This document shows, piece by piece, positions 25,056-61,429 of a DNA stretch of 64,000 nt. A model generated the notes under the pieces. It made no database searches. It worked only from the letters and a program-made list of their open reading frames with translations, and was not told the origin of the DNA. The stretch spans positions 69,910,935-69,974,934 of the forward strand of contig NC_134847.1 in the NCBI RefSeq assembly GCF_965363235.1. Reading direction: 5' to 3'. The translations under genes were made by a program, and so were the position numbers. Source of the stretch: Mytilus galloprovincialis. Taxonomy: Eukaryota. Position 1 is the stretch's first letter. Each line of letters begins with the position of its first letter.

Positions 25056-25157
25056 CTACTGTTCAAAGAGCATTTTTATTAGTTGCCCAAATTTCATTTC
25101 TTGGATTTAAAACTGTGAATTAAGAAATTATTGTGTGCATTTATATTATTATTGTGA

Positions 25158-26310: not shown

Positions 26311-27320
26311 TACAAAATTCTCAGAAATGATCCTGAATATGTTTAATTGTCATTTGTTCCATGTTTGCAATGTGTTCTGATTCTTTGTAAATATTTTTTA
26401 GGGTAAATTTATTTCTGTTTGATGTGATGCTGTTCTAATCTTATTTTAATTGTCTTTTGTTTATACTGTATCTTTTCTGTGGTAATCTGTTATGTAATAG
26501 GGAAATGTGTGTTAACACCTGAGCAAACATCCAACCTCATATCTTCTTGCAAATTCTTTGACCTGACAATTAAACCATCCTGATCTAACTTTCGGTCCTA
26601 TATTTTAATTTTGCTAATAAATGTGTCAGTGAACAAAATCCTCAAAGTCACACATAATGAGTTCATATTAATTTCATAGTAATTTAAATAATTTAATTAC
26701 CCCTGATTTCTTTCAGAACACACTGTTTGAACTCATGATATGTAAAATTAAGGATTTAGTGCTCACATTATTATCAACCTAATTTTTCCTGCTATCACCT
26801 ATCTTGTAAATAAACTCCTGGGAAATACTGTGTAGCAATGCCATTGGTATCCATGTTTGAATTAAACATAAATCATAATTTAATTGCAACTTTTATTTTA
26901 TATATATACATCACGATTATAATTTGGCCCTTGGGGAAACTACTCAGCTAAAAAATTTAATTTTTTGCTCCATGCCTAAACCAAGAGCCTAGCTATGTGC
27001 ATACTGAAAAGTAGCAAAGTATAGACCCCTGGCTTGACATCACACCAATCCAATTGGAACGATGGTTCAAAATAAATGCATGAGGCTATCAGGAAGCCTA
27101 TGAGGCTATCATTCCTAGAGGCTATCATGCCTATGAGGCTATGAGGAAGCCTATAATGAGACAATGAGGAAGCCTGTAAGGAGGCTATGAGGAAGCCTAG
27201 TAGTGTTGATGTTGAATTGGTGTTGGAATGAATTTGTATGAAATTTGACAGTTTATCCCCAGAAATTCTTGGGGGATGAGTGAAATTTTTGAAACAACCA
27301 GTGATAAAATTTCATAAATG
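26311..27320 (-). repeat. Ngaro terminal direct repeat, copy at the element 3' terminus. Contains ATGAGGCTATCA/GAGGAAGCCT subrepeats at 27087-27200.
   Basis: Identical, as read, to 27841-28856. Confidence 0.8.
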
Positions 27321-27398
27321 AAATCAATAAACATAATGCTGAGATTGCTTCCCCTGTCATGGCAATATTGAAGGTGAAAGGAGGGGTCGGTGGGAGGC

Positions 27399-27839
27399 AA
27401 GTTTTTAGCTAAAACCTATTAGCACTATTAGCCAAGATTATTCTATAACTGCTTAATCTGCATTTAGATAAATGAATACTCAAGGCAGCATACACAGGTT
27501 TTTAATACACAACTTCTTAATGGGATACTCCTAAGTGGGAGGAGTTAAAACTGCACCCAGATTAATGTATCAAGAAACAAAGGACAAAGGAAGCCAAATG
27601 CCACAAGTGGTCACTAATTAACAAGACATGTATATTTGTATTGGAACTGATGAAATTAGACCTCCTGCTAAGAACATGTGATAAACTTCATATCTAACTG
27701 ATTGACATATGATAATAAATCTGTTTCATCTCAACAGCAAAGAAAATACACATCCTGGGAAAATCCTAAAATAATGACTACTGAGTAATTAAAATCAAAT
27801 TATGTATAAACATACTTATATAACATATAAGTACCTATT
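27399..27839 (-). repeat. Ngaro internal copy of the 0.44-kb repeat, identical to 33203-33646.
   Basis: agtttttagctaaaacctattagcac...gtacctattta is present at both sites. Confidence 0.8.
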
Positions 27840-27840
27840 T

Positions 27841-28856
27841 ATACAAAATTCTCAGAAATGATCCTGAATATGTTTAATTGTCATTTGTTCCATGTTTGCA
27901 ATGTGTTCTGATTCTTTGTAAATATTTTTTAGGGTAAATTTATTTCTGTTTGATGTGATGCTGTTCTAATCTTATTTTAATTGTCTTTTGTTTATACTGT
28001 ATCTTTTCTGTGGTAATCTGTTATGTAATAGGGAAATGTGTGTTAACACCTGAGCAAACATCCAACCTCATATCTTCTTGCAAATTCTTTGACCTGACAA
28101 TTAAACCATCCTGATCTAACTTTCGGTCCTATATTTTAATTTTGCTAATAAATGTGTCAGTGAACAAAATCCTCAAAGTCACACATAATGAGTTCATATT
28201 AATTTCATAGTAATTTAAATAATTTAATTACCCCTGATTTCTTTCAGAACACACTGTTTGAACTCATGATATGTAAAATTAAGGATTTAGTGCTCACATT
28301 ATTATCAACCTAATTTTTCCTGCTATCACCTATCTTGTAAATAAACTCCTGGGAAATACTGTGTAGCAATGCCATTGGTATCCATGTTTGAATTAAACAT
28401 AAATCATAATTTAATTGCAACTTTTATTTTATATATATACATCACGATTATAATTTGGCCCTTGGGGAAACTACTCAGCTAAAAAATTTAATTTTTTGCT
28501 CCATGCCTAAACCAAGAGCCTAGCTATGTGCATACTGAAAAGTAGCAAAGTATAGACCCCTGGCTTGACATCACACCAATCCAATTGGAACGATGGTTCA
28601 AAATAAATGCATGAGGCTATCAGGAAGCCTATGAGGCTATCATTCCTAGAGGCTATCATGCCTATGAGGCTATGAGGAAGCCTATAATGAGACAATGAGG
28701 AAGCCTGTAAGGAGGCTATGAGGAAGCCTAGTAGTGTTGATGTTGAATTGGTGTTGGAATGAATTTGTATGAAATTTGACAGTTTATCCCCAGAAATTCT
28801 TGGGGGATGAGTGAAATTTTTGAAACAACCAGTGATAAAATTTCATAAATGGCCAT
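27841..28856 (-). repeat. Ngaro internal copy of the 1.01-kb repeat.
   Basis: Identical to 26311-27320. Duplicate ORFs 26976..27164 and 28507..28695 give the same peptide. Confidence 0.8.
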
Positions 28857-29079
28857 AACACAGATGGTAACAGCTGAGTGTCCCCAAGGATTTGTGAGGT
28901 TAGGGAGGGGGTACCTTCAATAAAGCCATGAAATAAAAAAAAAATAAAAAAATAATAAAAATAATAAATGTTATCACATAATAATACACAATATCAAAAT
29001 CAATTGTCAAACAAAAACAATATCATCTAGAATCTCTGTAAAAAACATGTGTATGGAATATTTGAAAATGAGCATGCCC

Positions 29080-30093
29080 TTAAATTCTACCTAACCTACT
29101 TTGAGCTGTTTTAATAGATGCTGGCGTTACCCTAATGTATCTGATGTAACTATCTGAAGTCCAGCGCCCTAATGTTTTTATCAAGTGATCTTCTATTTTT
29201 GCCTTACCAGCACTTGTAGCTGCCCCAATTCTAAAACTATGACCATTATAATGACTTGAGTTGAAACCACATATATCCAGTACTTTTTTGATACAAGTGA
29301 TGAAATATTGTCTCTCCAAAGGTTTCTTATCAATGGTTATGAAAAGTGGATCAGTTTGATTAGTAGGAGAAAATTCTTTCCTTATTTGTATATATTCTAA
29401 CAAAATTGTGTAAGGGCAGATAAGCTGACCTAATTTATGTAGCTGTAGATTTATGCCTTTTCTAAAAGGATCTGTTTTTGATTGTTTTAATTTCAAAACT
29501 ACTAAGTCTGAGTGAAATACAACATCTTCAATACATAAATTTATATGTGGATCAAACTGTGAGGCCTTTGACACTGTAAACTCGCCACATCTCAAAAATC
29601 CATAAAATGCGACAATGCATGCAGTTCTTAACATTAAATCAGTAAACTTGGAACAAAAACCTTTTCTCAAACAATTTACAATTTTTTCCAAAATTTCGAA
29701 AGTTATTGGTAATCTTATGTGATTTTTTGTTTTTTGCAGTCTTTTTACAGAATTTAAAACATAATCAAGTCTGATTAAAGGTGTATTATGAGCAGATTGT
29801 AAGGGATCATTTTGATTACCCTGTACATATTTATACCTAATTCCACATAAATATAATTTAATGGTAGAGTATTGTAAACTCAGAACTTTAAAGCAGTGGG
29901 CTATGAAATAAATTAAAATATCCTCAGAAATAGGAGGTAAATTAGAAAATTGAAAACCATTCAATAACATAAAAGTCTCAAATTTTCTGAACCCAGTATC
30001 ATAAACAGTTCTTGTAGTATTAGCAATAGCACTGTTCCAAAGTTCATTCACTGCTTGATTTAGGACCACATTACATCTGAGCTGCTTGGGCAC
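29080..30093 (-). CDS. Ngaro tyrosine recombinase (phage-integrase-type YR), 337 aa.
   Basis: Box I FLRCGEF. Box II GHSFRIGAATSA. LGRWTSDSYIRYIR carries the Tyr nucleophile, so the R-H-R-Y set is present. Overlaps the RT ORF by 34 nt. Confidence 0.85.
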   Translation of the reverse strand: MPKQLRCNVVLNQAVNELWNSAIANTTRTVYDTGFRKFETFMLLNGFQFSNLPPISEDILIYFIAHCFKVLSLQYSTIKLYLCGIRYKYVQGNQNDPLQSAHNTPLIRLDYVLNSVKRLQKTKNHIRLPITFEILEKIVNCLRKGFCSKFTDLMLRTACIVAFYGFLRCGEFTVSKASQFDPHINLCIEDVVFHSDLVVLKLKQSKTDPFRKGINLQLHKLGQLICPYTILLEYIQIRKEFSPTNQTDPLFITIDKKPLERQYFITCIKKVLDICGFNSSHYNGHSFRIGAATSAGKAKIEDHLIKTLGRWTSDSYIRYIRVTPASIKTAQSRLGRI

Positions 30094-31553
30094 TTCATTG
30101 GATGTTGTGCTGCACTGGGAGCTAGTTTGCGGAATCTGTCTATCTGTAAACGAGATAGAGCATCACTTATATCATTCTGATATCCTGGAACATGTTTGGC
30201 ACTAAAATGAAAGTTGTATTTACAAGCACACCATGTAAGTTTCCTCATTAATTTCATTATTTGTAAACACTTTGAACGGCCCTTTTTTACTATAGCCACT
30301 GTAGCTTCATTGTCACACCAGAAAAGAATGCGTTTTGTTGTCCACTGTGAGCCCCACAGTATTGCGGATACTACAATGGGGTATAATTCAAGAAAAGCCA
30401 TTGAAAATGTTTTGTCAGGATAAGCAATGTTTGATGGCCATGATGAATAAAACCATTCTCCCTTGAAATATCCACCAAATCCTTTTGTTGATGAGGCATC
30501 AGTAAAAAGTTCCATATCATAACTTGAGTAAAATTGTCTACTGTAAAACATGTTCACACCATTCCAGCTGCTCAGAAAAAGTAACCAAAATTCTAGGTCA
30601 ACACGGCATTCCTTATCTAATTTAACATAATGATGCAAATCATTGACAGTAGTGGACAGCCCTATGAGGTATGAAACAAAGGATCTACCAGGTAAAATGA
30701 CACGTGAAGCAAAGTTTAAGTGACCCAAAAGCTGCAACAATTCCCTTTTTGTACAAGATTTTTTCCTGCATAATTTTTTGATGAATTCACAAATGCGATC
30801 AACTTTATTAAGAGGTAGTCGAGCTTCCATTTTTTCAGAATCTAGAATAATACCCAAATATTCTAAACATTTTACAGGACCTATTGTCTTATGTTTTGCT
30901 ATAGGAATGTTCAGTTTTTTGAAAATCATCATCATTATAGCCATAGTCCTCTCACCATCAGCATCTGGTGGATCTATGGTTAGGAAATCATCCAATAAAT
31001 GCAAAATGCTATTAACTTTGTAATTGTTTTCTGCAATATGACACAAAGCTTGGGATAAATGGTCAAAAATTTTGGGGCTTGAACGACATCCAAAAGTTAA
31101 ACGGACATAAAAATAATACATTTTTTCCCATTTTATGCAGAAAAGAGGCCACTGACTTGGTACAATTGGACAATTTTTGAACGCGTCGGATATGTCGAAC
31201 TTGCAAAGCCAGGAATTTCTTCCAAATTTCAAAATAACATCAATGGCGTCATCTATTCTAACATAAGACATTGAGCAATCCTGTTTGTCAATAAGATCAT
31301 TAATACTTAGATGTTTATCATCATTATGTGGTGAAGATAAGTCCAATATTAAACGCTTTTTACCAGAATATTTCCCTTCTGCAATACCAATTGGGCTTAC
31401 CCTATAATTTTGAAAAGGGGGATCCTTAAAAGGCCCATACAAGAAACCTTTAAAAACTTCTTTCTCTATCAAATCAGAAACCACATCTGGTTGTGTCCTA
31501 GCAGATAAACTATTCCTACATTCTTTTGTAGGTAAATCTGTTGTAGATACCAT
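30060..31553 (-). CDS. Ngaro reverse transcriptase plus RNase H, 497 aa, with no methyltransferase domain.
   Basis: RT blocks LILDLS, KFDISDAFKNCPI, LTFGCRSSPKIF, HLLDDFL (YxDD equivalent). RNase H FTDASSTKGFGGYF...WCDNEATV. The ORF is too short for a DIRS-type methyltransferase, so Ngaro rather than DIRS. Confidence 0.85.
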   Translation of the reverse strand: MVSTTDLPTKECRNSLSARTQPDVVSDLIEKEVFKGFLYGPFKDPPFQNYRVSPIGIAEGKYSGKKRLILDLSSPHNDDKHLSINDLIDKQDCSMSYVRIDDAIDVILKFGRNSWLCKFDISDAFKNCPIVPSQWPLFCIKWEKMYYFYVRLTFGCRSSPKIFDHLSQALCHIAENNYKVNSILHLLDDFLTIDPPDADGERTMAIMMMIFKKLNIPIAKHKTIGPVKCLEYLGIILDSEKMEARLPLNKVDRICEFIKKLCRKKSCTKRELLQLLGHLNFASRVILPGRSFVSYLIGLSTTVNDLHHYVKLDKECRVDLEFWLLFLSSWNGVNMFYSRQFYSSYDMELFTDASSTKGFGGYFKGEWFYSSWPSNIAYPDKTFSMAFLELYPIVVSAILWGSQWTTKRILFWCDNEATVAIVKKGRSKCLQIMKLMRKLTWCACKYNFHFSAKHVPGYQNDISDALSRLQIDRFRKLAPSAAQHPMKCPSSSDVMWS

Positions 31554-31682
31554 AGTATCAAATCCTTTCTCTAAGCCATTGCATAAATAGTTAACAGATT
31601 TTTTGTCAGGATGAGAAATTAATTCTTTTGCAAGTATAATAACATTAATTGGAGTAGTAGCCAGATATGGGAAATCATGTAG

Positions 31683-33083
31683 TCATTGACCTTGCTTATT
31701 TGTTGTTATTTTCTCAAACTTTTGTGAAGAGTTTACTGTATGTGGCTTAGATTGTACTTCAGTCCTACCTTGAGAGGGGAAAACTTTTTGACAAGATAAT
31801 AGGGTATGACCAGCGACTTTACATCTGCTACAGATATGTGAAAAATGACAAAAACTCCTGGTACAACCCCTACTGGTATTAAAATTATTGCAAACCTCCC
31901 GCCCAGAATGATAAATTTTCTTTCTACCTAACTTATCAGTAGTGTCTACCTGCCTTGATACTTTATCTGGGTAGTCTTGATATGTCATGGAGGTTTGCAT
32001 AGGACAAAAAGCAGTAGTGTGATCAACCAAATTACAAATTTTGCAAACATTTACATTCCCACCAGCAACTATTAATGAAAGAAGATCCCTATCTCTTTTG
32101 CTCCAGTCAACCTTAATCCTTCTCTCCCTTAAAAGAGCTGCTGATTTTGCAGAAAACAATTTATGGTAATCATAAAATCTGTCACCATAAAAATTACTAA
32201 TATCTATAATCTCATCTTCATAAGCATCTAGCTCTGCTCTACGGTCAGGGTAAACTGATGACATGACCCTCTTAAACTTGCCAAATGCCTTAATGAATTC
32301 TTGAATTGTGAGTTTTCTATTCAGACGGGGATCTGGCTTCCCAGAAATATTTAACTCTAACCCATTAGCTGCAACAGAGTGAATTTGGGGAGTTTCATAG
32401 TTTGGGATAAGCAGAGATGCCAAATTAACATCCTTACCGTCAATGATTTGCTTTTGAATAGAAGGAGATATAATGTCCACATTAGAATATTCATCCGAAC
32501 GCACTCCACATGAAACATTTCCAACTTGTGGTCCTGAGATGAAAGATGCATGCTCTTGTGTATTTCCATGTAAAACAGTATTATTTCCTCTGTTAGAAAT
32601 TTCACTCCTATTCCCAATCCCTGCATGGTTGTACCACTGTTGAAGGTTGAATTCGCGATCTCTACCTGTGTCATGAGTACAATTGTCTCTGTAAATTAGC
32701 TGTTTAAAGGTCTCTTGAAGTCCTTCAAAACACTGAGCTATGTTCCTGTCTGTTCCACCATTTGAAACACTGCTTCTGTGTTGATGCACTGATTCTGCTA
32801 AGGTAATTGGAAGAGTGCTCTCTGGTGAGGAATCTGTGTTAATCTCATCACTAATGGTGTCTGTCTGTTGTGTCTCTAAAGATGTTACTCCATCAAAACA
32901 ATTCTCTAAATAAAGTTGTTTTAACACTTGTTTTGACATACCAGAAGGTGTTCTTATTCCCTTTTTGTTAAGTTCTTCTTTTAGTTTGTTTATTGTCCAA
33001 TTAGAAGGGTTATTAGAATCCCATTGGGTCTCATACGGAGAACTCCTAGTTTTCCTTCGAACACCTTTTCCTCTGCCAGACAT
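31683..33083 (-). CDS. Ngaro Gag-like protein, 466 aa, with an N-terminal SAP-like motif and two CCHC zinc knuckles.
   Basis: INKLKEELNKKGIRTPSGMSKQVLKQLYL (SAP-like). CKICNLVDHTTAFC and CSRCKVAGHTLLSC (C-x2-C-x4-H-x4-C). Basic N-terminus. Confidence 0.75.
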   Translation of the reverse strand: MSGRGKGVRRKTRSSPYETQWDSNNPSNWTINKLKEELNKKGIRTPSGMSKQVLKQLYLENCFDGVTSLETQQTDTISDEINTDSSPESTLPITLAESVHQHRSSVSNGGTDRNIAQCFEGLQETFKQLIYRDNCTHDTGRDREFNLQQWYNHAGIGNRSEISNRGNNTVLHGNTQEHASFISGPQVGNVSCGVRSDEYSNVDIISPSIQKQIIDGKDVNLASLLIPNYETPQIHSVAANGLELNISGKPDPRLNRKLTIQEFIKAFGKFKRVMSSVYPDRRAELDAYEDEIIDISNFYGDRFYDYHKLFSAKSAALLRERRIKVDWSKRDRDLLSLIVAGGNVNVCKICNLVDHTTAFCPMQTSMTYQDYPDKVSRQVDTTDKLGRKKIYHSGREVCNNFNTSRGCTRSFCHFSHICSRCKVAGHTLLSCQKVFPSQGRTEVQSKPHTVNSSQKFEKITTNKQGQ

Positions 33084-33202
33084 TTTGTTGTCAGTTAATC
33101 CAAAATAATGTTTATTGTTTCAGGTTATATAGTTTGAATTATATTTAGTTGTTTAAAAACTGTCATATAGCTTTTGTAAAGTAATCCAAACACTGAAAGT
33201 TC

Positions 33203-33646
33203 AAGTTTTTAGCTAAAACCTATTAGCACTATTAGCCAAGATTATTCTATAACTGCTTAATCTGCATTTAGATAAATGAATACTCAAGGCAGCATACACA
33301 GGTTTTTAATACACAACTTCTTAATGGGATACTCCTAAGTGGGAGGAGTTAAAACTGCACCCAGATTAATGTATCAAGAAACAAAGGACAAAGGAAGCCA
33401 AATGCCACAAGTGGTCACTAATTAACAAGACATGTATATTTGTATTGGAACTGATGAAATTAGACCTCCTGCTAAGAACATGTGATAAACTTCATATCTA
33501 ACTGATTGACATATGATAATAAATCTGTTTCATCTCAACAGCAAAGAAAATACACATCCTGGGAAAATCCTAAAATAATGACTACTGAGTAATTAAAATC
33601 AAATTATGTATAAACATACTTATATAACATATAAGTACCTATTTAA
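33203..33646 (-). repeat. Ngaro 5'-terminal copy of the 0.44-kb repeat.
   Basis: Matches 27399-27839. Confidence 0.8.
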
Positions 33647-33756
33647 AAAATTTATAAGTTTTTAAGTTTAAGTTCTTAGACCACATTTATTCTGTGTCAA
33701 CTGTTCAGGGTTCGAACTCTGCGGCCGTATAAAGCTGCACCCTGCAGAGCATCTGG
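33647..33756 (+). mobile_element. 3' tail of composite element copy 1, displaced by the Ngaro insertion. Homologous to 52135-52296.
   Basis: aaatttWtaagtttttaagtttaagttcttagaccacatt...actgttcagggttcgaMctctgcgg...taaagctgcRccctgcagagcatctgg is shared by both copies. Copy 2 has an extra 60 bp. Confidence 0.6.
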
Positions 33757-34163
33757 ATAAGAATGGACATAAAGGCAAGTTTAATTATTGTGATTCCAGG
33801 AAAATATTTATACAGAGTTGTTTACTTGATATCAGAATGAAAGTTTCAATTAATGCGATACAAACCCACTCCCAGTCACATTATTCAGATGAATGTGAAC
33901 CTCACAAGAATTTTTGAATTCACTGTATACAGGACTATATATATCATGTATCTATATGTATCCCCAAATTTAAATAATGATTTCACTTGACTATTAACGA
34001 ATATATTTACAGAGTACACATGTTGTATGTAATGACCTTTTTATGAGCTATTAACATTTGACACAAATTTCAAAACCTCCCTAATGTCTACATGTCTTCC
34101 CTAAAGATCGATCATTATCATATTTGTTGTCTTGTTTATTATATGTTTCTGGTTTATTTACAG

Positions 34164-34362
34164 AGTACACATGTTGTATGTAATGACCCAGAAAAGGCAG
34201 ATATCAGTTACAAATGTAAGATGGCCTCAAAGTATGGATTACCAGTAGTGTCACTTGATTATATCCATGACTGTGTAGACCAGGGGAGACTACTCAATAC
34301 AGATAATTACATCCTTGTAGGAAAAACAAAGTCACAAGAATTCAGCTCAGGAAAGATAACAG
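34164..34362 (+). CDS. PARP4: PARP4-like exon 2: C-terminal half of BRCT.
   Basis: STHVVCNDPEKADISYKCKMASKYGLPVVSLDYIHDCVDQGRLLNTDNYILVGK. Acceptor ttatttacag, donor GTAAAA, phase-1 exit. Confidence 0.65.
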
Positions 34363-34865
34363 GTAAAAGGAAAAGGAAAAATAAACAAACTTATTTCATA
34401 AATGGAAAAGGGGTATCTACCAATATCTCATGTTTGGCCTACTGTTTGATTGAAGTTTTAAAACTTGAAATTAAAATTAGAAATAATTTTTCAATATTCT
34501 AAAGATTTCCAAAGTACAAATCTCTGAATACAATATGTATGACATTAGTTTTTTCAGACTTCAAAAATTGTTCAGTAGGTCTGAACGTACTTTAGTGAAA
34601 AATATTTTACATTACGGTTTTAAAATTATGTTATGTCCATTTATTGTAGAAGCGTAAGTGTATTGTTACACAAGCAAGGGCATTATCTGGGTCCTCATAA
34701 TGGACACATTCTCCATTTATATCAATATGTATTTGTCTTTACAACACAACATTTACCTGGCTTACAGATGAGGTAAAAATTAGCAGAAATGTAATAATTG
34801 TTAAATATTAAAATATTTAGACATGATGAATATATAAAAGAGGAATGATTTGTTTTGATTTGCAG

Positions 34866-37694: not shown

Positions 37695-38143
37695 GTATGT
37701 AAACTTTTTATGAACTAGAATACAAACTGGAATAACTTATATAACTTGTACCTTTGATAACCAATTATATACAATGTTATGCAATAAGTATTTGTCACTA
37801 ACGATCTTTACTATATATTTCTAACTATAACAAACAGTATTATGAACGACACAGCTATTTTATATTTTATATCTATTGATGATTTGTCATCAGTTGTCTT
37901 AGTTTTTTTCCTGGAGTGAACATTTAGTTTGATTGAAATAAATGGCAACGTTCCAGACAAAAATGAAATGAGAAAGCGTCATAATAAAAGTATAACCAAA
38001 GTTGTTAGTTCAAACCCTGCTTGTGGCATGTTGCATTAATGGATTTTATTTGACACAGTTTGCAACTTTTACTGTAGAAGGCTTTTGGTTTTCTTTGGGT
38101 ACTCTTGCTGCCTCAACCATTGAAAAATATGCACCATGATAAT

Positions 38144-38357
38144 ACTGTAAATTCAGAAATTATTGTGTGCATTTTATTATTGCTATTTGGTCATTTTAGA
38201 CTTCAATGCGATTTTAATCTTTACGATTTTGCGAAAAATCCTGTTTAATTCATATAAAATATTTCAAAATGTCAGTTTAAATTATTGCGTTTACCACATT
38301 TTTTCGCATTTTTCTCAATATTAAAAACCTTGCAATAATTTCTGAATTTACTGTAGT
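38144..38357. mobile_element. MITE of about 215 bp with TIR CTGTAAATTCAGAAATTATTG / CAATAATTTCTGAATTTACTG. A paralogue lies at 58322-58530, and the same head occurs at 25118-25157.
   Basis: Termini read directly. The internal sequence is shared with 58322-58530 (attattgtgtgcatttWattattg...ttgattcatataa.aaatttcaaaatg). Confidence 0.55.
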
Positions 38358-41929: not shown

Positions 41930-44900
41930 AGATTGCACATTCCTAAAAGACAATACAAAGGATATGGGCTATCCATCCATGACACAAGCACATTCCTAAT
42001 AGACACTACAAAGGATATGGAGTATCCATCCATGACACAAGTACATTCCTAATAGACACTACAAATGATATGGGCTATCCATCCATGACACAAGCACATT
42101 CCTAATAGACAATACAAATGATATGGGCTATCCATCCATGACACAAGCACATTCCTAATAGACACTACAAATGATATGGGCTATCCATCCATGACACAAG
42201 CACATTCCTAATAGACAATACAAATGATATGGGCTATCCATCCATGACACAAGTACATTCCTAATAGACAATACAAATGATATGGAGTATCCATCCATGA
42301 CACAAGCACATTCCTAATAGACACTACAAATGATATGGGCTATCCATCCATGACACAAGCACATTCCTAATAGACACTACAAATGATATGGGCTATCCAT
42401 CCATGACACAAGCACATTCCTAATAGACACTACAAATGATATGGGCTATCCATCCATGACACAAGCACATTCCTAATAGACACTACAAATGATATGGGCT
42501 ATCCATCCATGACACAAGCACATTCCTAATAGACACTACAAATGATATGGGCTATCCATCCATGACACAAGCACATTCCTAATAGACACTACAAATGATA
42601 TGGGCTATCCATCCATGACACAAGCACATTCCTAATAGACAATACAAATGATATGGGCTATCCATCCATGACACAAGCACATTCCTAATAGACACTACAA
42701 ATGATATGGGCTATCCATCCATGACAAAAGCACATTCCTAATAGACACTACAAATGATATGGGCTATCCATCCATGACACAAGCACATTCCTAATAGACA
42801 CTACAAATGATATGGGCTATCCATCCATGACACAAGCACATTCCTAATAGACACTACAAATGATATGGGCTATCCATCCATGACACAAGCACATTCCTAA
42901 TAGACACTACAAATGATATGGGCTATCCATCCATGACACAAGCACATTCCTAATAGACACTACAAATGATATGGGCTATCCATCCATGACAAAAGTACAT
43001 TCCTAATAGACACTACAAATGATATGGAGTATCCATCCATGACACAAGCACATTCCTAATAGACACTACAAATGATATGGGCTATCCATCCATGACACAA
43101 GCACATTCCTAATAGACACTACAAATGATATGGGCTATCCATCCATGACACAAGTACATTCCTAATAGACACTACAAATGATATGGGCTATCCATCCATG
43201 ACACAAGCACATTCCTAATAGACAAAACAAAGGATATGGGCTATCCATCCATAACACAAGCACATTCCTAATAGACACTACAAATGAAGTACATTCCTAA
43301 TAGACAATACAAATGATATGGGCTATCCATCCATGACACAAGCACATTCCTAATAGACAATACAAATGATATGGAGTATCCATCCATGACACAAGCACAT
43401 TCCTAATAGACACTACAAATGATATGGGCTATCCATCCATGACACAAGCACATTCCTAATAGACAATACAAATGATATGGGCTATCCATCCATGACACAA
43501 GTACATTCCTAATAGACAATACGAATGATATGGGGTATCCATCCATGACACAAGCACATTCCTAATAGACACTACAAATGATATGGAGTATCCATCCATG
43601 ACACAAGCACATTCCTAATAGACACTACAAATGATATGGGCTATCCATCCATGACACAAGCACATTCCTAATAGACACTACAAATGATATGGGCTATCCA
43701 TCCATGACACAAGCACATTCCTAATAGACACTACAAATGATATGGGCTATCCATCCATGACAAAAGTACATTCCTAATAGACACTACAAATGATATGGAG
43801 TATCCATCCATGACACAAGCACATTCCTAATAGACACTACAAATGATATGGGCTATCCATCCATGACACAAGCACATTCCTAATAGACACTACAAATGAT
43901 ATGGGCTATCCATCCATGACACAAGTACATTCCTAATAGACACTACAAATGATATGGGCTATCCATCCATGACACAAGCACATTCCTAATAGACAAAACA
44001 AAGGATATGGGCTATCCATCCATAACACAAGCACATTCCTAATAGACACTACAAATGATATGGGCTATCCATCCATGACACAAGCACATTCCTAATAGAC
44101 ACTACAAATGATATGGGCTATCCATCCATGACAAAAGTACATTCCTAATAGACACTACAAATGATATGGAGTATCCATCCATGACACAAGCACATTCCTA
44201 ATAGACAATACAAATGATATGGGCTATCCATCCATGACACAAGCACATTCCTAATAGACACTACAAATGATATGGGCTATCCATCCATGACACAAGCACA
44301 TTCCTAATAGACAATACAAATGATATGGAGTATCCATCCATGACACAAGCACATTCCTAATAGACACTACAAATGATATGGGCTATCCATCCATGACACA
44401 AGTACATTCCTAATAGACAATACAAATGATATGGGCTATCCATCCATGACACAAGCACATTCCTAATAGACACTACAAATGATATGGAGTATCCATCCAT
44501 GACACAAGCACATTCCTAATAGACACTACAAATGATATGGGCTATCCATCCATGACACAAGCACATTCTTATAGACAATACAAATGATATGGGCTATCCA
44601 TCCATGACACAAGTACATTCCTAATAGACAATACGAATGATATGGGGTATCCATCCATGACACAAGCACATTCCTAATAGACACTACAAATGATATGGAG
44701 TATCCATCCATGACACAAGCACATTCCTAATAGACACTACAAATGATATGGGCTATCCATCCATGACACAAGCACATTCCTAATAGACACTACAAATGAT
44801 ATGGGCTATCCATCCATGACACAAGCACATTCCTAATAGACACTACAAATGATATGGGCTATCCATCCATGACACAAGCACATTCCTAATAGACACTACA

Positions 44901-46200
44901 AATGATATGGGCTATCCATCCATGACACAAGCACATTCCTAATAGACACTACAAATGATATGGGCTATCCATCCATGACACAAGCACATTCCTAATAGAC
45001 ACTACAAATGATATGGGCTATCCATCCATGACACAAGTACATTCCTAATAGACAATACAAATGATATGGGCTATCCATCCATGACACAAGCACATTCCTA
45101 ATAGACAATACAAATGATATGGAGTATCCATCCATGACACAAGCACATTCCTAATAGACAATACAAATGATATGGGCTATCCATCCATGACACAAGCACA
45201 TTCCTAATAGACAATACAAATGATATGGGCTATCCATCCATGACACAAGCACATTCCTAATAGACAATACAAATGATATGGGCTATCCATCCATGACACA
45301 AGCACATTCCTAATAGACACTACAAATGATATGGGCTATCCATCCATGACAAAAGTACATTCCTAATAGACACTACAAATGATATGGAGTATCCATCCAT
45401 GACACAAGCACATTCCTAATAGACACTACAAATGATATGGGCTATCCATCCATGACACAAGTACATTCCTAATAGACAATACAAATGATATGGAGTATCC
45501 ATCCATGACACAAGCACATTCCTAATAGACACTACAAATGATATGGAGTATCCATCCATGACACAAGCACATTCCTAATAGACACTACAAATGATATGGA
45601 GTATCCATCCATGACACAAGCACATTCCTAATAGACACTACAAATGATATGGGCTATCCATCCATGACACAAGCACATTCCTAATAGACACTACAAATGA
45701 TATGGGCTATCCATCCATGACACAAGCACATTCCTAATAGACACTACAAATGATATGGGCTATCCATCCATGACACAAGCACATTCCTAATAGACACTAC
45801 AAATGATATGGGCTATCCATCCATGACACAAGCACATTCCTAATAGACAATACAAATGATATGGGCTATCCATCCATGACACAAGCACATTCCTAATAGA
45901 CACTACAAATGATATGGGCTATCCATCCATGACAAAAGTACATTCCTAATAGACACTACAAAGGATATGGAGTATCCATCCATGACAAAAGTACATTCCT
46001 AATAGACACTACAAATGATATGGAGTATCCATCCATGACACAAGCACATTCCTAATAGACAATACAAATGATATGGAGTATCCATCCATGACACAAGCAC
46101 ATTCCTAATAGACACTACAAATGATATGGGCTATCCATCCATGACACAAGCACATTCCTAATAGACAATACAAATGATATGGGCTATCCATCCATGACAC
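41930..46200. repeat. Intronic satellite: about 80 tandem copies of a 53-bp unit (ACAAATGATATGGGCTATCCATCCATGACACAAGCACATTCCTAATAGACACT).
   Basis: The 53-bp period was verified at 42061, 42114 and 42167. Variants segregate (gcac/gtac, cact/caat, gggc/ggag). Lies inside PARP4-like intron 11. Confidence 0.85.
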
Positions 46201-46427
46201 AAAATCAGTAGGTGCACACCAAAAAAGCACAAGAAGCAAACAGTGCATTTATAGTTGTTCTTCTTCTAGGGGTAACAGTTAGGCCTACAATGCTGAGCAA
46301 AGAAACTCCCACCCTTCTGCAATTCCAAGACAACCACCAGCACCGGTCCTAGTAAAGTTTTGTGTACATACCACAGTATATTGTACAATTTAATTATATG
46401 TTACAATTTTTATTTTAATTTATACAG

Positions 46428-48038: not shown

Positions 48039-48263
48039 GTAGTAGTTTTACAGGAGTACCACAACAATAGTACCTCTACTCTAGAAGCTAAGTATGTGTT
48101 TCCATTAGATGATATGGCTGCTGTTTGTGGATTTGAGGCTTTTATCAACGGTAAACATATTGTGGGAGAAGTAAAGGAGAAGGAGACGGCTCACAAGGAA
48201 TACAAGAAGGCAATAAGTGAAGGACATGGAGCTTATCTCATGGATCAGGATGAAGAAACTCCC
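48039..48263 (+). CDS. PARP4: PARP4-like exon 14: VIT domain.
   Basis: VVVLQEYHNNSTSTLEAKYVFPLDDMAAVCGFEAFINGKHIVGEVKEKETAHKEYKKAISEGHGAYLMDQDEETP. tatttcag / GTAGGT. Confidence 0.7.
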
Positions 48264-49294
48264 GTAGGTTAAATAATAGGCCGTTTCAGAATCTAAAGGT
48301 CTATGGGTTACTCAATTGTTTGTACCCAACATTGAAAATAACACCACAGCATTGGTCTAATTTCAATTATTTAGGACATTTTTAACCAATCATGACGCTT
48401 TGGTGTACACTTATGAAAATATTACCCAGAATGCATTAGATTCTTAAACAGCGAATTATATACTTGCTGTTTTGTTTTATTGTACTCATTATTTTGTTGT
48501 TGTCTTGTTGCTATTTTCCCACATCTCCTGTTAGTAATACTACAGGAATAATGTTTTAACAGTATATAGTTGTACCTTTTTAATGTGTATGGTTACATTA
48601 ATGAGTCAACTGTGAGTTAAATTATTATATAAAACATTTGGTGTCATCAAATTCAAATATATTAAAGGATCTTTTTGAACACACAGGTCATGTAAACATT
48701 TACAATACAGTGCACAGATCAATTTGTTAGCCAACTTTACATATATAAATTGAACACCAAATTTCTTAACCCTTTCAACGCTACACAAAAAAAAGAGAAA
48801 AATGGCTGCTGCTGCTGCATTTTTTGTGTGTTCATTCATTAGAACAGTATATTCCTTTTCAGACTGCTGTATCTTTTTTATTATAAGAGATACAGAGAAA
48901 GTTATTGCATGAAAAATGCTCAGGAGAGTATGAACTGTAATGTTGGGCAGTTATTTCAGTAAAATTTTTATCAGGTTACCTGCATTTTCATGTAATTAAC
49001 AGGTAAAAGGTGTAATTTATTACATTTGTGTTGAATTTGGAATAAAAACTACTTTTAGTCTTCATCTATTTTGTTGTTTTATCTGCCATATAATAAAGAA
49101 GACACCAATTGCTCGATTCCGTAGCGTATAGCACCATTCACAACGTATTATGTAATCTTGGCACAAATCAGTGGCTCCGTCCTCAAAATTTTCAGTCAAC
49201 CTCCGTTTTCCGCGAATAGCAGTGGCGGACGGCGTATGTCATCGCGGCATATGCCGTGTAAAGCGTTGAAAGGGTTAATATAGTGAATGTAAAA

Positions 49295-49961: not shown

Positions 49962-50117
49962 GATGTATTTACTGTCAGTGTGGGTAATTTGCCACCAGGG
50001 TGTGTGGCCCTTATCAAAATAACTTATGTATCAGAATTACAAGTAGAAGGAGAATTGATCAACTTCACAATTCCTGGATCTGTGGCTCCTTGGAAACAGG
50101 AAGCCAGTAATACTGAA
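49962..50117 (+). CDS. PARP4: PARP4-like exon 15: VIT.
   Basis: DVFTVSVGNLPPGCVALIKITYVSELQVEGELINFTIPGSVAPWKQEASNTE. gtttcttgcag / GTAAGG. Confidence 0.65.
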
Positions 50118-50430: not shown

Positions 50431-50520
50431 GATGATGACAGCTGTACCATCCAAGTGTCAATACAGATGCCATTTGATATCAGAACAGTAACATGTCCAA
50501 CTCATAAAATTATGAAAAAG
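50431..50520 (+). CDS. PARP4: PARP4-like exon 16.
   Basis: DDDSCTIQVSIQMPFDIRTVTCPTHKIMKK. tattacag / GTAAGT. Confidence 0.6.
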
Positions 50521-51107
50521 GTAAGTAACTCTCTTTATGTTGCTTCAAAAAAATTTCTGTGCATGGTTTTATTTTTCAGCTATGGAAAGCTTTCAAATTT
50601 TGACAAATTGAGTTTTTTGAAATGTCTGATATGTTCAAGCTCCTTTTTATACGACCGCAAAAATTGAAAATTTTTTGGTCGTATATTGGTATCACGTTGG
50701 CATCAGCGTCGGCGTCATCAAAGATATTTGGTTTTCGCACTCTAACTTTAGTAAAAGTAAACAGAAATCTATGAAATATAAACCTGACCATAAAAGGAAG
50801 GTTGGGATTGATTTTGGGTGTTTTGGTCCCAACAGTTTAGGAATTAGGGACCAAAAACAGATCCCAAATAAGCATTTTTCTTGGTTTTTGCACAATAACT
50901 TTAGTATAAGTTAATAGAAATCTATGAAATTTTAACACAAGGTTTATGACCACAAAAGGAAGGTTTGGATTGATTTTGGGAGTTTTGGTGACAATGAATT
51001 AGGGGCCAAAAGGGTCCAAAAGTAACTTGTTTGATTTCATCAAAAATGAATTATTGGGGTTCTTTGATATGCCAAATCTAACCGTGTATTCAGATTCTTA
51101 ATTTTTA

Positions 51108-51402
51108 TGCCCCACCTACGATAGTAGAGGGGCATTATGTTTTCTGGTCTGTGCGTCCGTTCGTTCGTCCGTCCATCTGTTCCTTCGTCCGTCTGTCCCT
51201 CTTCAGGTTAAAGTTTTTGGTCAAGGTAGTTTTTGACGAAGTTGAAGTCCAATCGACTTCAAACTTAGTATACATGTTCCCTATGATATGATCTTTTTAA
51301 TTTTAATGCCAAATTAGAGGGTTTACCCCAATTTCACGGTCCACTGAACATAGAAAATGATGGTGCGAGTGGGGCATTCGTGTACTGGGGACACATTCTT
51401 GT
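51108..51402. mobile_element. Small insertion of about 295 bp inside copy 2, with 9-bp inverted termini ATGCCCCAC / GTGGGGCAT. Absent from copy 1.
   Basis: Copy 1 reads ttaatttttggtcctgttttcaaatt at 25751-25776 without it. The 5' hairpin is atgccccacctacgatagtagaggggcat. Confidence 0.45.
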
Positions 51403-51574
51403 TGGTCCTGTTTTCAAATTGGTCTGCATTAAGGCCCAAAGGGTCCAAAATTAAACTAAGCTTGATTTGAACAAAAATTGAGGTTCTTTGATATGCTGAA
51501 TCTGAACATGTACTTAAATTTTAAATTATGGGCCCAGTTTTCAAGTTGGTCCAAACCGAGGTCCAAAATTATTA

Positions 51575-51835
51575 TATTTAGTATCGTGCAATAGCAAGAA
51601 ATTTTCAATTGCACAGTATTCCGCAATAGCAAAAAATCTTCAATTGCACAGTATTGTGCAATAGCAAGAAATTTTCAATTGCACAGTATTGCGCAATAGC
51701 AAGAAATATTCAATTGCACAGTATTGTGCAATAGCAAGAAATATCTAATTGCACAACATTGCGCAATAGCAAGATATTTTCAATTTCATAGTTTTGCGCA
51801 ATAGCAAGAAATATTCAATTGCACAGTATTGTCCC
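51575..51835. repeat. About eight tandem copies of a 33-bp unit AATTGCACAGTATTGYGCAATAGCAAGAAATWTTC. Each unit holds a TTGCACA...TGYGCAA palindrome.
   Basis: Read directly. Present only in copy 2 of the composite element. Confidence 0.6.
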
Positions 51836-52582
51836 GTTTTCAAATTGGTCTACATTAAGGTCCAAAGGGTCAAAAATTAAACTTTGTTTGATTTCAACAA
51901 AAATTGAATATATGGGGTTCTTCAATATGCTGAATCTTACCATGTATTTAGATTTTTAATATTTAGGCCCGGTTATCAAATTGGTCCACATTGAGGTCTA
52001 AAGGGTCTAAAATTGAACATTATTTGATTTCATCAAAAATTGAATTCTTGGGGTTCTATGATATGCTGAATCTAACCATGTATTTAGATTTTGGATATTG
52101 GACCATAATAGGTAAATGTCCAATTTAAAATTTTTAAGTTTTTAAGTTTAAGTTCTTAGACCACATTCATTCTGTGTCAGAAACCTATATTGTGTTAATT
52201 ATTTGATCAAGCTTAAATGTTGTGTCCATACTTGCCCCAACTGTTCAGGGTTCGACCTCTGCGGTCATATAAAGCTGCGCCCTGCAGAGCATCTGGTTAG
52301 CTTGATGGATTAGAAAACCATAAGTATCATAAGATTTACAAATAGCATTCTTCAAATGTTATCTAGACTTTCTTTTTTATCAGCAGATTTGCTTTTTTGA
52401 TTGTGTTTTTGTTAACTTCATCATTTTCAATAGATATTTGAAGACTGCCAAATTTGACTCGTTTGATATTCAAAAGAATATTATGATAATAGCAACAGCA
52501 GTTAACAGTTCAGTTCTATTTTGAAAAAATACAAAATATGAATTGAATGGAATAATAATATAGCTTTATATTGATTAATTAC

Positions 52583-53515
52583 GGTCCTACTAAAAAGCGC
52601 CCAGGAGCGCCCGGGTGAAGAAAAAGCGCCCGGAGAAAAGAAAAAGCGCCCGGGGAAGAAAAAACAGCGCCCGGGGAAAAGAAAAGGCGCCTGGGAGAAT
52701 AAAATAATAATATGTATGATAACAATAAATATTTTCCTGAAGAAAAAAAATCATTGCTTGTTTTGTCCTTATATAAATGGGGATATGTACGATGCTACGA
52801 TCTGGAATTGACAAACTTTGCCTGAGATGTTCCTCACCACAGACAAAAAATGTGAATTATTCATGCAAAGCGTTTTTTTCCAATGACCAGTCAGATTAAT
52901 ACACATACACATCAGCTTTATTACGATTGACAGAGATGAGATTTGTAATATATTATATAAATAATAAAGAGAAAATAATAAAACGTTCTGTTCAGACAAT
53001 GCAAAAGGTACGCTTATGGAATTTTAATATTTCATTATTCTACATCCGTTTTCATTTTTTTAACAATCGTTAACTGTACACACTGTTGATTTTGCATTTT
53101 TTTTTTTAAATCATTCTTAAAAAACATGTCTTTTGATGTCTTACATTTTATAAATCTATAGCATAAACTGTGATCGATTCATTTTTATCTGTCTTTTGAA
53201 ATAGTATTCATATATTATTGTTAAAATTGAAACATTCATACTCGTTTTTATGCTTTATTATATATCTCTATTATCTGAATTTGCAAAATACTTGTCTGAA
53301 ATTAGAAAAAATAATCAATGTGCATAACTTATTTCATCGACACAAAGTTGTCTCATGCCAATACAATATCTATAAAATTTCCCCGGGCGCCTTTTCTTTC
53401 CCCGGGCGCTGTTTTTCTACATGGGGCGCTTTTTCTTTTCCCCAGGCACTGTTTTTTTCTTCCCCGGGCAATTTTTCTTCTACCGGGCACTACCGGGCGC
53501 TTTTTAGTAGGGCCC
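52583..53515. mobile_element. Foldback element of about 930 bp. Inverted arms are made of AAAAGCGCCCGGGGRAG subrepeats; the centre is AT-rich.
   Basis: ggtcctactaaaaagcgcccaggagcgcccggg... at 52583 and ...cccgggcgctttttagtagggcc at 53493-53515 are reverse complements. ORFs 53218..53530 and 52590..52814 are low-complexity artefacts. Confidence 0.65.
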
Positions 53516-54043: not shown

Positions 54044-54230
54044 GCAGCCATGTTGACATTTTATCCAGAATTTGAAGCAGCAGAAGACAATGAAACAGAG
54101 ATAATACTTGTCCTTGACCTTTCAAATTCAATGAAGGGGAAAGCTTTGCAGGAAGCTAAGAAAATTTTGCTGCTAACACTGAATCATCTGTCAGCACATA
54201 CTCTGTTTAACATTGTAGTATTTGGCACAT
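54044..54230 (+). CDS. PARP4: PARP4-like exon 18: start of the vWA domain.
   Basis: AAMLTFYPEFEAAEDNETEIILVLDLSNSMKGKALQEAKKILLLTLNHLSAHTLFNIVVFGT. tttttttag / GTAGGT. Phase-1 exit. Confidence 0.7.
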
Positions 54231-58321: not shown

Positions 58322-58530
58322 ATATACTGTAAATTCAGAAATTATTGTGTGCATTTATTATTGTGATTTTGTCATTTTAGAATAAAATGCAATTTAATTT
58401 TTGAGATATTTAGAAAATTCCTATTTGATTCATATAATAAATTTCAAAATGCGAGTTTTAATTATTGTGATGATAAACCTGTTGCATTTTCGCAATAATA
58501 AAAACATCCCAAGGATTTCTGAATTTAAGG
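58322..58530. mobile_element. Second copy of the 38144-type MITE, in PARP4-like intron 24.
   Basis: actgtaaattcagaaattattgtgtgcattt...gcaataataaaaacatcccaaggatttctgaatttaagg. Confidence 0.5.
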
Positions 58531-60800: not shown

Positions 60801-61429
60801 ATAATTGACTATTAAAGCTAATACTAAGTTATGTTGGTAAAATATTTTTAGAAATCTGAAAGAATAAATATGTCTAGCTATAAAATGATAATAAAATGTT
60901 TAAGAATATTATGATTTAAAATCAGAATTTGATTTGTGCATTTAAATTATTATTGTTAATTTTCTATAGCAAACAAAAAATGATTATTTTAATTAATATA
61001 ATTTCTGTGTAAATTGTAGAATAATTATTACTCTACAAGTTTTTCATCCTGTCTAGTTTTCCACATTAGTATCTGAAATGATCTGTATGCCAAGCAACAT
61101 ATATGGTAGCTAAAATATATTTCTTTTATACCAGTATGTCATGTTACAGTGAGTTGACTGTTAGTGTTGCTCTCCACCAATTGCAACTCATTCAAAATTT
61201 TGACCAAATTGCAATTTGTTTTATAAAATCAAATTGTTCAACTGGTCAGAAATTTGAACCAACTGCTGTAGAAAACCACAGCCAAGTCATGAAAGTGCAA
61301 GGTGATAAAATAAAACTTACTTACAATCCTATAAGACTTTAATTCCACTTTAATGATGTTGTGACAAAATTAGTTTATCAGTTTGTATAGTTATATTATA
61401 TTCATTTCCATGCTGAAGGGGAACTGTTT

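Follow-up and report, generated by a model that had tools for sequence, protein, structure and literature searches.

Probable non-autonomous Helentron-type elements carrying tandem arrays in the genome of the mussel Mytilus galloprovincialis

The stretch of 64,000 nucleotides of Mytilus galloprovincialis contig NC_134847.1 that was analysed here (the window) contains two copies, A and B, of a repeat which is very probably (probability roughly 0.85) a non-autonomous Helentron-type rolling-circle transposon (HINE) of the Mytilus genome, with the architecture of DINE-1, pearl and Cg_HINE. Elements of this kind have already been described in oysters, clams and flies, and the mussel family is a well-documented example of them, not a novel class. 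One unit is about 1.06-1.26 kb long, non-coding, and has two short tandem-repeat arrays inside. It opens with a run of five T residues (T5), a 13-nt 5' subterminal inverted repeat (subTIR), a nested inverted repeat (IR) and a short (GTC)n tract. The arrays follow, with one to three monomers of about 160 bp and then three to five monomers of about 126-138 bp, and the right end consists of a 197-bp right module (with the 3' subTIR and a short palindrome) and ATCTGG, after which comes TT. The consensus left module begins TTTTTATACGACCGC and the consensus right module ends ...GCGGTCGTATAAAGCTGCGCCCTGCGGAGCATCTGGTT. Coding capacity is absent, the longest open reading frame overlapping copy B being 79 aa. 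As to an origin from a SINE or a structured RNA, no tRNA was found in the window and no Rfam match was better than E 0.1. The parts of the two copies are as follows.

25159-26310, + strand: left part of copy A, with T5 run and subTIR (25159-25173), IR (25187-25195), the arrays and the start of the right module
26311-33646, - strand: intact tyrosine-recombinase (DIRS/Ngaro-like) retrotransposon, foreign to the element, inserted in the right module of copy A
33647-33756, + strand: right part of copy A, with the remainder of the right module, the palindrome and the ATCTGG end
50644-52296, + strand: copy B as a whole, delimited by the terminal motifs
50644-50658, + strand: T5 run and 5' subTIR TTTTTATACGACCGC, placed by motif position and by eight independent 5' ends
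50677-50685, + strand: inverted repeat GGTCGTATA, pairing with TATACGACC (-10.9 kcal/mol, z -4.75, 0 of 200 shuffles)
50699-50719, + strand: short, degenerate, microsatellite-like (GTC)n tract in the left module, read from the sequence
50728-51011, + strand: two diverged 160-type monomers with a period of about 153 (self-matches 50728-50856 and 50881-51011, 77% alike)
51013-51106, + strand: left part of the first 126-type monomer (m1), interrupted by the nested element
51107-51398, + strand: nested 292-bp element of a second family (unique motif; own subTIR and 5' hairpin)
51399-51558, + strand: remainder of m1, and m2, of the 126-type array
51580-51831, + strand: 35-bp x 7.2 array of AGTATTGCGCAATAGCAAGAAATATTCAATTGCAC with palindromic units, in place of the interior of one 126-type monomer (TRF)
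51868-52104, + strand: 126-type monomers m3 and m4, of which m4 closes the array and is truncated; identity with their counterparts in copy A is 93.5%
52100-52260, + strand: internal part of the right flanking module, conserved in L005, L009, L010, L012 and L014
52261-52273, + strand: 3' subTIR GCGGTCATATAAA, complementary to the 5' subTIR at 12 of 13 positions (consensus GCGGTCGTATAAA, 13 of 13)
52274-52296, + strand: short 3' palindrome GCTGCGCCCTGCAGAGC and the terminal ATCTGG; the adjoining TT (52297-52298) may be part of the element

The nested element and the 35-bp array are extras of copy B that had not been separated in a preliminary description of this DNA, and the 7.3-kb insertion that interrupts copy A (25159-26310 plus 33647-33756) went unmentioned in it.

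Both ends of the unit are precisely defined. The window has exactly two occurrences of the 5' motif CTTTTTATACGACYGCAAAAA, at 25158 and 50643, and exactly two of the 3' motif GCTGCRCCCTGCAGAGCATCTGG, at 33734 and 52274, with none expected from shuffles in either case; the two copies with the same ends that had been noticed earlier are thereby borne out. Copies beyond the window were recovered from public assemblies, mostly from one ENA metagenome assembly (ERZ6864376), and the only extra one from a Mytilus genome assembly is L013 of M. edulis (GCA_905397895.1). Eight independent 5' ends (window A, window B, L004, two in L006, L007, L014 and L015) start TTTTTATAC[C/G]AC[C/T]GC and are preceded by unrelated sequence, and nine independent 3' ends (window A, window B, L005, L009, two in L010, L011, L012 and L014) finish ...GCTGCGCCCTG[CA/CG/TG]GAGCATCTGG. 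When the flanks of the copies were compared with each other, no flank resembled another. The preliminary description had staked its reading on the termini recurring elsewhere in the genome, and other copies do share both of them between unrelated flanks. Eight 5' and nine 3' ends of this sort therefore show that the repeat is a mobile family and not a segmental duplication.

Among the complete copies, B measures 1654 bp, which falls to about 1110 bp once its two inserts are subtracted; A has 1262 bp if the retrotransposon is left out of account, and L014 has 1062 bp. L013 belongs to a divergent subfamily, and its copy, about 1010 bp long, keeps the layout unchanged. In L006 the left module has been reused with an unrelated interior. 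Scanning the metagenome with the 5' subTIR-IR pattern yielded one true copy, L004. Three further loci were rejected as copies: L001, L002 and L003 have the pattern only and are otherwise unrelated, the 12-mer of L002 and L003 being part of a different inverted repeat. Scans of bacterial and archaeal genomes and viral contigs with 16-mers gave only chance matches, none of which aligned past the seed, because the pattern is too short for databases of such size.

The 13-nt subTIR, TTTATACGACCGC at the 5' side and GCGGTCGTATAAA at the 3' side, is fully complementary (13/13) in the consensus, as represented by both L010 copies, and complementary at 12/13 positions in copy B and at 11/13 in copy A, where the 3' subTIR reads GCGGCCGTATAAA (33721-33733) within a right module 58 bp shorter than that of copy B. 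The 3' subTIR sits 24 nt from the CTGG end. It is this subterminal repeat, overlooked in the preliminary description, that places the element with the Helentrons and HINEs, since the latter are defined by subterminal inverted repeats of 11-13 bp whose 3' complement lies near the end and not at it (PMC4067079, PMC7492417). In six of the eight 5' ends, the inverted repeat GGTCGTATA pairs with TATACGACC, the inner 9 nt of the 5' subTIR, from 13-18 nt downstream. The 5' hairpin TATACGACC...GGTCGTATA so formed has a DNA folding energy of -8.1 to -10.9 kcal/mol (z -4.8 to -6.0), and none of 200 shuffles folds as well, in agreement with the hairpin proposed earlier for this end. The start given at the time needs a small correction: its T-run and subTIR belong to the element, but its leading C is flank, the other copies having a, t or g there. 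The (GTC)n tract of the left module is (GTC)3-6-like in most copies, takes the form GGCGTCGTCGTTGTC / GGCGTCGTCGTCGTCC in L004, L006, L014 and L015, and is deleted in copy A.

A palindrome or stem-loop directly after the 3' subTIR is a further feature of HINEs (PMC4067079, PMC7492417), and a short palindrome is found at this place in all copies. A hairpin followed by CTGG had been proposed for the 3' end, of which the CTGG end stands; the hairpin is statistically weak, the stem of the window copies measuring 4 bp and its fold being matched by shuffled sequence (z +0.55 and +0.04). The CA/TG/CG variation among the 3' palindromes of the copies points to an ancestral CpG, and the ancestral palindrome deduced in this way, GCTGCGC-CCT-GCGGAGC, would have 6 bp with one mismatch (-6.2 kcal/mol, z -0.77, not significant).

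T5 is present at 8/8 main-family 5' ends, and TT follows CTGG in 8/9 readable 3' flanks (divergent L013 included; L009, the end of which has diverged, left out), the exception being copy A. No direct repeats flank A, B or L014. T-run boundaries, T-rich or TT targets and the lack of target-site duplication are likewise reported for HINEs, in which a microsatellite and central repeats are frequent and not obligatory (PMC4067079, PMC7492417). A candidate empty site of the main family lies at 58326-58407, in a weak paralogue of the copy A flanks (77% identical) that reads GTCATTTTAGAAT across the junction and has a T4 run there. Chimeric empty-site queries against all fetched DNA returned this one weak paralogue and no clean main-family empty site. 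Copy B lies inside an intron of a PARP4-like gene, the flanking exons matching C. gigas PARP4-like at 66%, with VIT domains; in a search for orthologous PARP4 loci with these exons, concatenated, as query, no Mytilus protein was among the matches.

A cleaner view of insertion is offered by the nested 292-bp element in copy B, which is non-autonomous and belongs to a second family with the same layout as the main one. It has the subTIR pair ATGCCCCAC / GTGGGGCAT, a (GTCC/GTTC)n tract, a 5' hairpin of its own (-9.9 kcal/mol, z -6.0) and the end ...ACACATTCTTGTT, and further members are found in L007 and L014. Copy A, L004 and L006 retain the site without the insert, as CTTAATTTTT followed directly by GGTCC, and the filled site in copy B has no duplication and a T5 at the 5' junction.

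Since the preliminary description had likened the CTGG end to the CTRR of Helitrons, the question arises whether the family could be a non-autonomous canonical Helitron, with 5' TC, a hairpin, a 3' CTRR and insertion between A and T. This is improbable. Indeed, CTGG fits CTRR, it lies 6 nt past the short palindrome, the next base is T in 8/9 readable flanks, and target-site duplication is absent. The 5' end, however, is TTTTTATAC and not TC in every copy, and the bases preceding the eight 5' ends (c, c, a, a, a, t, g, g) reveal no preference for A, so that the insertion context between A and T, which had been expected at additional copies, did not materialize. In addition, a 13-nt inverted repeat ties the 5' end to a subterminal 3' site and the 5' hairpin is nested in it, features by which Helentrons and HINEs have been contrasted with canonical Helitrons (PMC4067079). 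The likeness to canonical Helitrons is thus superficial: CTGG fits CTRR and is followed by a T, but T5 takes the place of TC and the base in front of the element shows no preference for A.

A classical MITE, that is, a deletion derivative of a cut-and-paste DNA transposon which contains tandem repeats by chance, is still less likely. In such an element the inverted repeats should be terminal; here the 3' repeat, 24 nt from the CTGG end, is subterminal and therefore not terminal, and no duplication is seen at A, B and L014, nor at the filled and empty site of the nested family. Small size, lack of coding sequence, abundance and inverted repeats near both ends would suit a MITE, and pearl and DTC84 were originally classified in this manner, the first accounts giving them a MITE-like character and a target duplication of 'AA' (PMC3879986). 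Read on the opposite strand, however, the pearl-type 'AA' is the T-run boundary, and later work explained it by Helentron insertion (PMC4067079, PMC7492417). Least credible of all is the absence of any discrete mobile unit, with A and B as products of a local segmental duplication or as fragments of a dispersed satellite. The two copies lie in or beside one gene, 25 kb apart and in equal orientation, and both have satellite-like arrays, but the similarity of A and B ends exactly at the T5 run and at CTGG, and the same ends recur between unrelated flanks at at least 10 further loci, one M. edulis contig included; the arrays, for their part, are short, have an ordered structure and lie between non-repetitive modules that are conserved. 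A non-autonomous Helentron-like mobile element with tandem arrays, as first suggested, agrees best with termini common to unrelated loci and with the subTIR.

The closest parallel to the Mytilus elements is Cg_HINE (PMC7492417). Its left module comprises the 5' subTIR, an IR complementary to it and a microsatellite of the GTC type (reported as GTCY/GTCC/GTCK), and its centre is occupied by satellite-like arrays of about 150-180 bp, at times two in succession, whose orientation relative to the flanks is fixed. The right module consists of 3' subTIR and palindrome, and insertion is T-rich or TT without target-site duplication. The host family differs, being Mytilidae in the present case, and the likeness is one of layout; moreover, the IR spacing is 13-18 nt in Mytilus versus 1-12 nt, the right module about 197 bp versus about 60 bp, and the second array has a 126-138-bp monomer. 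The DINE-1/HINE elements of Drosophila, mites and mosquitoes, which are non-autonomous partners of Helentrons, similarly have 13-bp subTIRs and, 3-22 bp away from the 5' one, an IR whose 5' half is nested in the subTIR. They also possess a microsatellite, central repeats and a 3' stem-loop; their boundaries carry 2-5 T, and the T-run target is left unmodified (PMC4067079). The 3' stem-loop of the Mytilus family is weaker than theirs, and the likeness is one of architecture, a relationship in sequence not being expected.

Pearl (CvA, CvE and CvG of Crassostrea virginica), DTC84 of Donax trunculus and MgE of Mytilus galloprovincialis have a comparable modular layout: a flank, 1-6 core repeats of about 160 bp, a microsatellite and another flank, with terminal or subterminal inverted repeats (PMC3879986). 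The order of the monomer variants of DTC84 does not change with copy number (PMC3879986), and the 126-type monomers of the Mytilus family are likewise fixed in order. According to the title of Kourtidis 2006 (cited in PMC7492417 and PMC4067079), introns of a Mytilus gene harbour MgE, which in this respect resembles copy B. MgE was reported to be without a microsatellite (PMC3879986), whereas most Mytilus copies studied here have a short (GTC)n tract. A text search of the literature with six k-mers of the element gave no relevant match, and a literature search returned no paper combining ApaI, Mytilus and satellite DNA. The family may be identical with MgE, and its 160-bp monomer may be an ApaI satellite type, for which the distances of 160 and 138 bp between GGGCCC sites in copy A are an indirect hint.

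By analogy with the published family, transposition would take place in trans by the Rep/helicase, with or without the endonuclease, of an autonomous partner, presumably a Helentron and perhaps a Helitron2. The enzyme would recognise both ends and strip away a single strand, starting at the 5' end and stopping at the 3' subTIR and palindrome, where the 3' structure would act as the terminator; the strand would then be pasted into a T-run without duplication of the target, and the tandem arrays would be copied along as cargo. Knowledge of this mechanism is unchanged by the present findings. Both window copies are old and decayed, and the CpG-to-TpG/CpA changes in their termini together with one or two secondary insertions per copy suggest that they are probably immobile relics.

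The arrays are better developed in copy A, in which TRF delineates a 160-bp array of 2.9 copies (25215-25661) and a 126-bp array of 4.7 copies (25660-26279). Both arrays had been ascribed to both copies; in copy B this applies to the 126-type (a 136-bp array of 1.9 copies, 51836-52099) but not to the 160-type, which amounts to just the two monomers, 77% alike, and is not called by TRF even at score 30. The GGGCCC sites mentioned for both copies are present and unevenly distributed, five in copy A versus one in copy B, and are spaced by 160 and 138 bp in copy A. No similarity above that of shuffles was seen between the 160- and 126-bp monomers that would indicate a common origin. Monomers of the 126-type are 91.4% identical at the same position in different copies versus 84.7% at different positions in one copy, and in 28/31 cases a monomer finds its best match in another copy within its own positional class. 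From this fixed order it follows that the second array travels with the element, and that the arrays are inherited with it and not homogenised locally.

The 35-bp x 7.2 array is found in copy B and in no other family copy. A single 35-bp unit is present just upstream of the right module in the divergent M. edulis subfamily copy (L013 6716-6749). It is conceivable, if rather doubtful, that copy B captures the birth of a new tandem array in a Helentron-type element and that the family forms a natural series for the cargo arrays of HINEs, a reading that draws on the amplification of the 35-bp unit from 1 to 7.2, the fixed monomer order and the reuse of the left module in L006. If true, the series would be a tractable one, in which arrays arise, are exchanged among the 'cassettes' that flank them and might eventually give rise to satellites, for example the ApaI repeats.

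About half of a mussel genome consists of repeats, and those that bear arrays can easily be mistaken in annotation for satellites, MITEs or canonical Helitrons. The main import of the present results therefore concerns annotation, as the subTIR and T-run signature provides a clean definition of the main family and of the second, nested one. The inheritance of the arrays is also relevant to an idea of long standing, according to which transposon cargo is the source of bivalve satellites, the Mytilus ApaI repeats possibly among them.

The window also gives evidence of layered activity in or beside the PARP4-like gene, with a HINE within a HINE in copy B and a very young tyrosine-recombinase retrotransposon within a HINE in copy A. 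The retrotransposon has two pairs of split direct repeats, 26303-27320 = 27834-28851 (99.9%) and 27398-27841 = 33202-33645 (100%). Its domains are RVT_1 and a weakly matching Phage_integrase, its proteins are 98-99% identical to M. edulis proteins, and a 99% identical copy of it is carried by another M. edulis locus.

Both terminal motifs of the two window copies (A and B) of the approximately 1.1-kb array-carrying element, here called the main family, proved real and specific, as claimed in the preliminary description: in the 64-kb window CTTTTTATACGACYGCAAAAA (5' motif) occurs only at 25158 and 50643 and GCTGCRCCCTGCAGAGCATCTGG (3' motif) only at 33734 and 52274, with no occurrence of either in 100 shuffles. 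When the copy B region was compared with the window by BLAST, copy B came back as a single unbroken block (50644-52296) and copy A as two parts (25159-26310 and 33647-33756) separated by 7.3 kb of foreign DNA. The earlier observation of two copies thus stands, corrected for the split of copy A. The GGGCCC sites are spaced by 160 bp in copy A; copy B retains one site and has lost the others.

When the end sequences are read, the reverse-complemented 5' end matches a subterminal 3' site, which had been overlooked. The consensus pair of these subterminal inverted repeats (subTIRs), TTTATACGACCGC / GCGGTCGTATAAA, agrees at 13/13 positions, copy B at 12/13 and copy A at 11/13. The layout is as follows.

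Main-family element, 5' to 3'
1. T5 run
2. 5' subTIR
3. Inverted repeat (IR) GGTCGTATA, 13-18 nt downstream, pairing with the inner part of the 5' subTIR
4. Short (GTC)n-like tract
5. One to three monomers of ~160 bp
6. Three to five monomers of ~126-138 bp
7. Right module, 197 bp, non-repetitive: 3' subTIR, short palindrome, ATCTGG

The 5' hairpin formed by subTIR and IR departs strongly from random expectation (-8.1 to -10.9 kcal/mol, z -4.8 to -6.0). At the 3' end the palindrome is weak, having a 4-bp stem in the window copies and folding no better than shuffles. Its variable dinucleotide is CG, CA or TG among copies, the pattern left by CpG decay; even the ancestral form GCTGCGC-CCT-GCGGAGC (-6.2 kcal/mol) does not fold significantly. 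There is no relationship between the two monomer types. Coding capacity is lacking, the longest ORF overlapping copy B being at most 79 aa; the window contains no tRNA, and no Rfam family matches in the region of copy B.

Further copies were found in contigs from public assemblies. A single metagenome scan for the subTIR-IR pattern yielded a third 5' end (contig L004). A period of 126 bp is divisible by three, so that gene-calling programs run ORFs through arrays of this kind; a 91-aa ORF in copy A, used as query, retrieved 32 such array-derived 'proteins' from ENA assemblies, and their contigs (L005-L012, L014, L015) hold further element copies. Eight independent main-family copies begin with TTTTTATAC... 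and nine end with ...GCATCTGG, while the flanks beyond these shared ends are unrelated from copy to copy. It had been considered that A and B might be a segmental duplication, in which case copies elsewhere would not have the same termini. The same ends at loci with unrelated flanks rule this out, and the window copies are therefore insertions of a mobile family. L014 contains a complete main-family copy of 1062 bp, and L013 (M. edulis, GCA_905397895.1) a divergent subfamily copy of ~1010 bp with the layout unchanged. Two metagenome contigs from unrelated samples (L002 23-34, 386-429; L003 1073-1103) have TTATACGACCGC...GGTCGTATA in common with the 5' hairpin of the element and nothing else, the motif lying there within a different IR (GTGCCGGTCCAGTTATACGACC / complement).

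Across the eight 5' ends, T5 is preceded by c, c, a, a, a, t, g and g, the CTGG is followed by TT in 8/9 readable 3' flanks (AT in copy A), and no direct repeat flanks the element at any complete copy. These boundaries match those described for Helentrons and their non-autonomous derivatives (HINEs), which have 2-5 T at the ends, target T-runs and do not modify the target (PMC4067079; PMC7492417). Canonical Helitrons, in contrast, start with a 5' TC, and their insertion site lies between A and T. Although CTGG fits the canonical CTRR formula, as had been pointed out, it is the only canonical detail that does so: the 5' TC and the A/T insertion preference are absent, and the element does not fit the definition of a canonical Helitron. 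The definition of a classical MITE likewise does not apply. Each tested feature of the HINE structural definition was found, except that the 3' stem-loop, while present, is statistically weak. Structure thus supports the core of the preliminary description, namely that the main family is a non-autonomous, array-carrying Helentron-type element. By architecture, its nearest described relatives are Cg_HINE (C. gigas), the pearl family, DTC84 and MgE (M. galloprovincialis), and it is a new representative of a well-known kind of element, or possibly one that already has a name. It might be MgE itself, and its 160-bp monomer one of the ApaI satellites, for which the 160-bp GGGCCC spacing in copy A is the only hint. 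No clean main-family empty site was found; the only candidate is a paralogue of the copy A flanks (58326-58407, 77% identical), where the junction shows a T4 run. The copy A target (25078-25158 and 33757-33836) itself belongs to an older, AT-rich dispersed repeat, other copies of which lie in the window at 58326-58407, 38140-38181 and 60924-60956.

The 126-type monomers fall into four positional classes: m1 adjoins the 160-type array, m2 is present once or twice per element copy, m3 is the third class, and the truncated m4 adjoins the right module. Monomers at the same position in different copies are on average 91.4% identical, those at different positions within one copy 84.7%, and in 28/31 cases a monomer's closest counterpart in another copy is of its own positional class. 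This position-specific similarity indicates that the master element already had the array, which was copied along with it; DTC84 of Donax likewise has ordered arrays (PMC3879986). Copy-number variation concerns chiefly m2 and the 160-type array. Among main-family copies, only copy B has a 35-bp palindromic unit repeated 7.2 times (51580-51831). A single 100% identical unit directly precedes the right module of the divergent M. edulis copy (L013 6716-6749), which suggests that the array of copy B is a local amplification of sequence native to the wider family and, possibly, a snapshot of array birth. In L006 (115-182, minus strand) the interior that follows the left module (T5, subTIR, IR, (GTC)n) has no relation to the 160/126-bp arrays; the left module is thus common to at least one other subfamily, much as oyster HINEs are reported to behave as 'cassettes'. 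A repeat with many GGTATTTTGAACCCC motifs cuts the upstream copy in L006 on the 3' side.

A second, array-less HINE-like family is nested in copy B (51107-51398) and also occurs at L007 3581-3821 and L014 about 2029-2290. Its layout is that of the main family: T5, subTIR ATGCCCCAC / GTGGGGCAT, a 5' hairpin (z -6.0), a (GTCC/GTTC)n tract and the end ...ACACATTCTTGTT. Three empty sites are available, as copy A, L004 and L006 keep CTTAATTTTT unbroken before GGTCC. In copy B the insertion is at the T5 run, without duplication, and the host T5 coincides with that of the element. This filled/empty comparison agrees with the published proposal that T-runs at the termini direct integration to T-runs. 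The most useful yield is that two Mytilus HINE families are now precisely defined, together with the positional order of the monomers and the possible case of array birth in copy B.

The foreign DNA in the right module of copy A is an intact tyrosine-recombinase (DIRS/Ngaro-like) retrotransposon on the minus strand (26306-33645).

ORFs of the retrotransposon
33083-31683, minus strand, ORF 1
31553-30060, minus strand, ORF 2, RVT_1
30093-29080, minus strand, ORF 3, weak Phage_integrase match (tyrosine-recombinase domain)

Its split direct repeats, in an arrangement typical of DIRS/Ngaro-type elements, are 100% and 99.9% identical, which dates the insertion into the old copy A as very recent. The reverse-transcriptase ORF shows 98-99% identity to proteins of Mytilus edulis and 91% to one of M. 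galloprovincialis, by which the window is assigned to the M. edulis complex. A second M. edulis locus (L013 9441-14948) holds a 99% identical, internally deleted copy of the retrotransposon.

Copy B is surrounded by exon-like ORFs that match VIT-domain PARP4-like proteins, the best named match being C. gigas PARP4-like (66% identity). Copy B therefore lies in an intron of a PARP4-like gene (plus strand, about 34160-58700), and copy A ~340 bp upstream of its BRCT-coding ORF.

Coding segments of the host gene
34092-34502, plus strand, BRCT-type ORF
48096-48272, about 49980-50115 and 50436-50520, plus strand, VIT exons
About 54065-54230, plus strand, VWA-like exon

A 4.3-kb array (41935-46202), in which a 53-bp unit recurs ~80 times in two blocks with 96% matches inside each, is apparently inside a PARP4-like intron. 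At 52583-53514, 290 bp downstream of copy B, there is a foldback-like structure with two inverted arms of ~60-100 bp, ~730-800 bp apart, each made up of ~20-bp subrepeats (AGCGCCCGGGGAAAAGAAAA). Elsewhere, an unbroken 1913-aa ORF (8702-14443, plus strand) overlaps a tandem array of 363 bp x 9 (12007-15266; 121-aa period); it matched no Pfam family and may be a repetitive secreted/mucin-like exon or a coding-looking satellite. At 16931-17557, an ORF of 208 aa has a reverse-transcriptase domain (RVT_1, E 3e-20) and is probably a non-LTR retrotransposon fragment.
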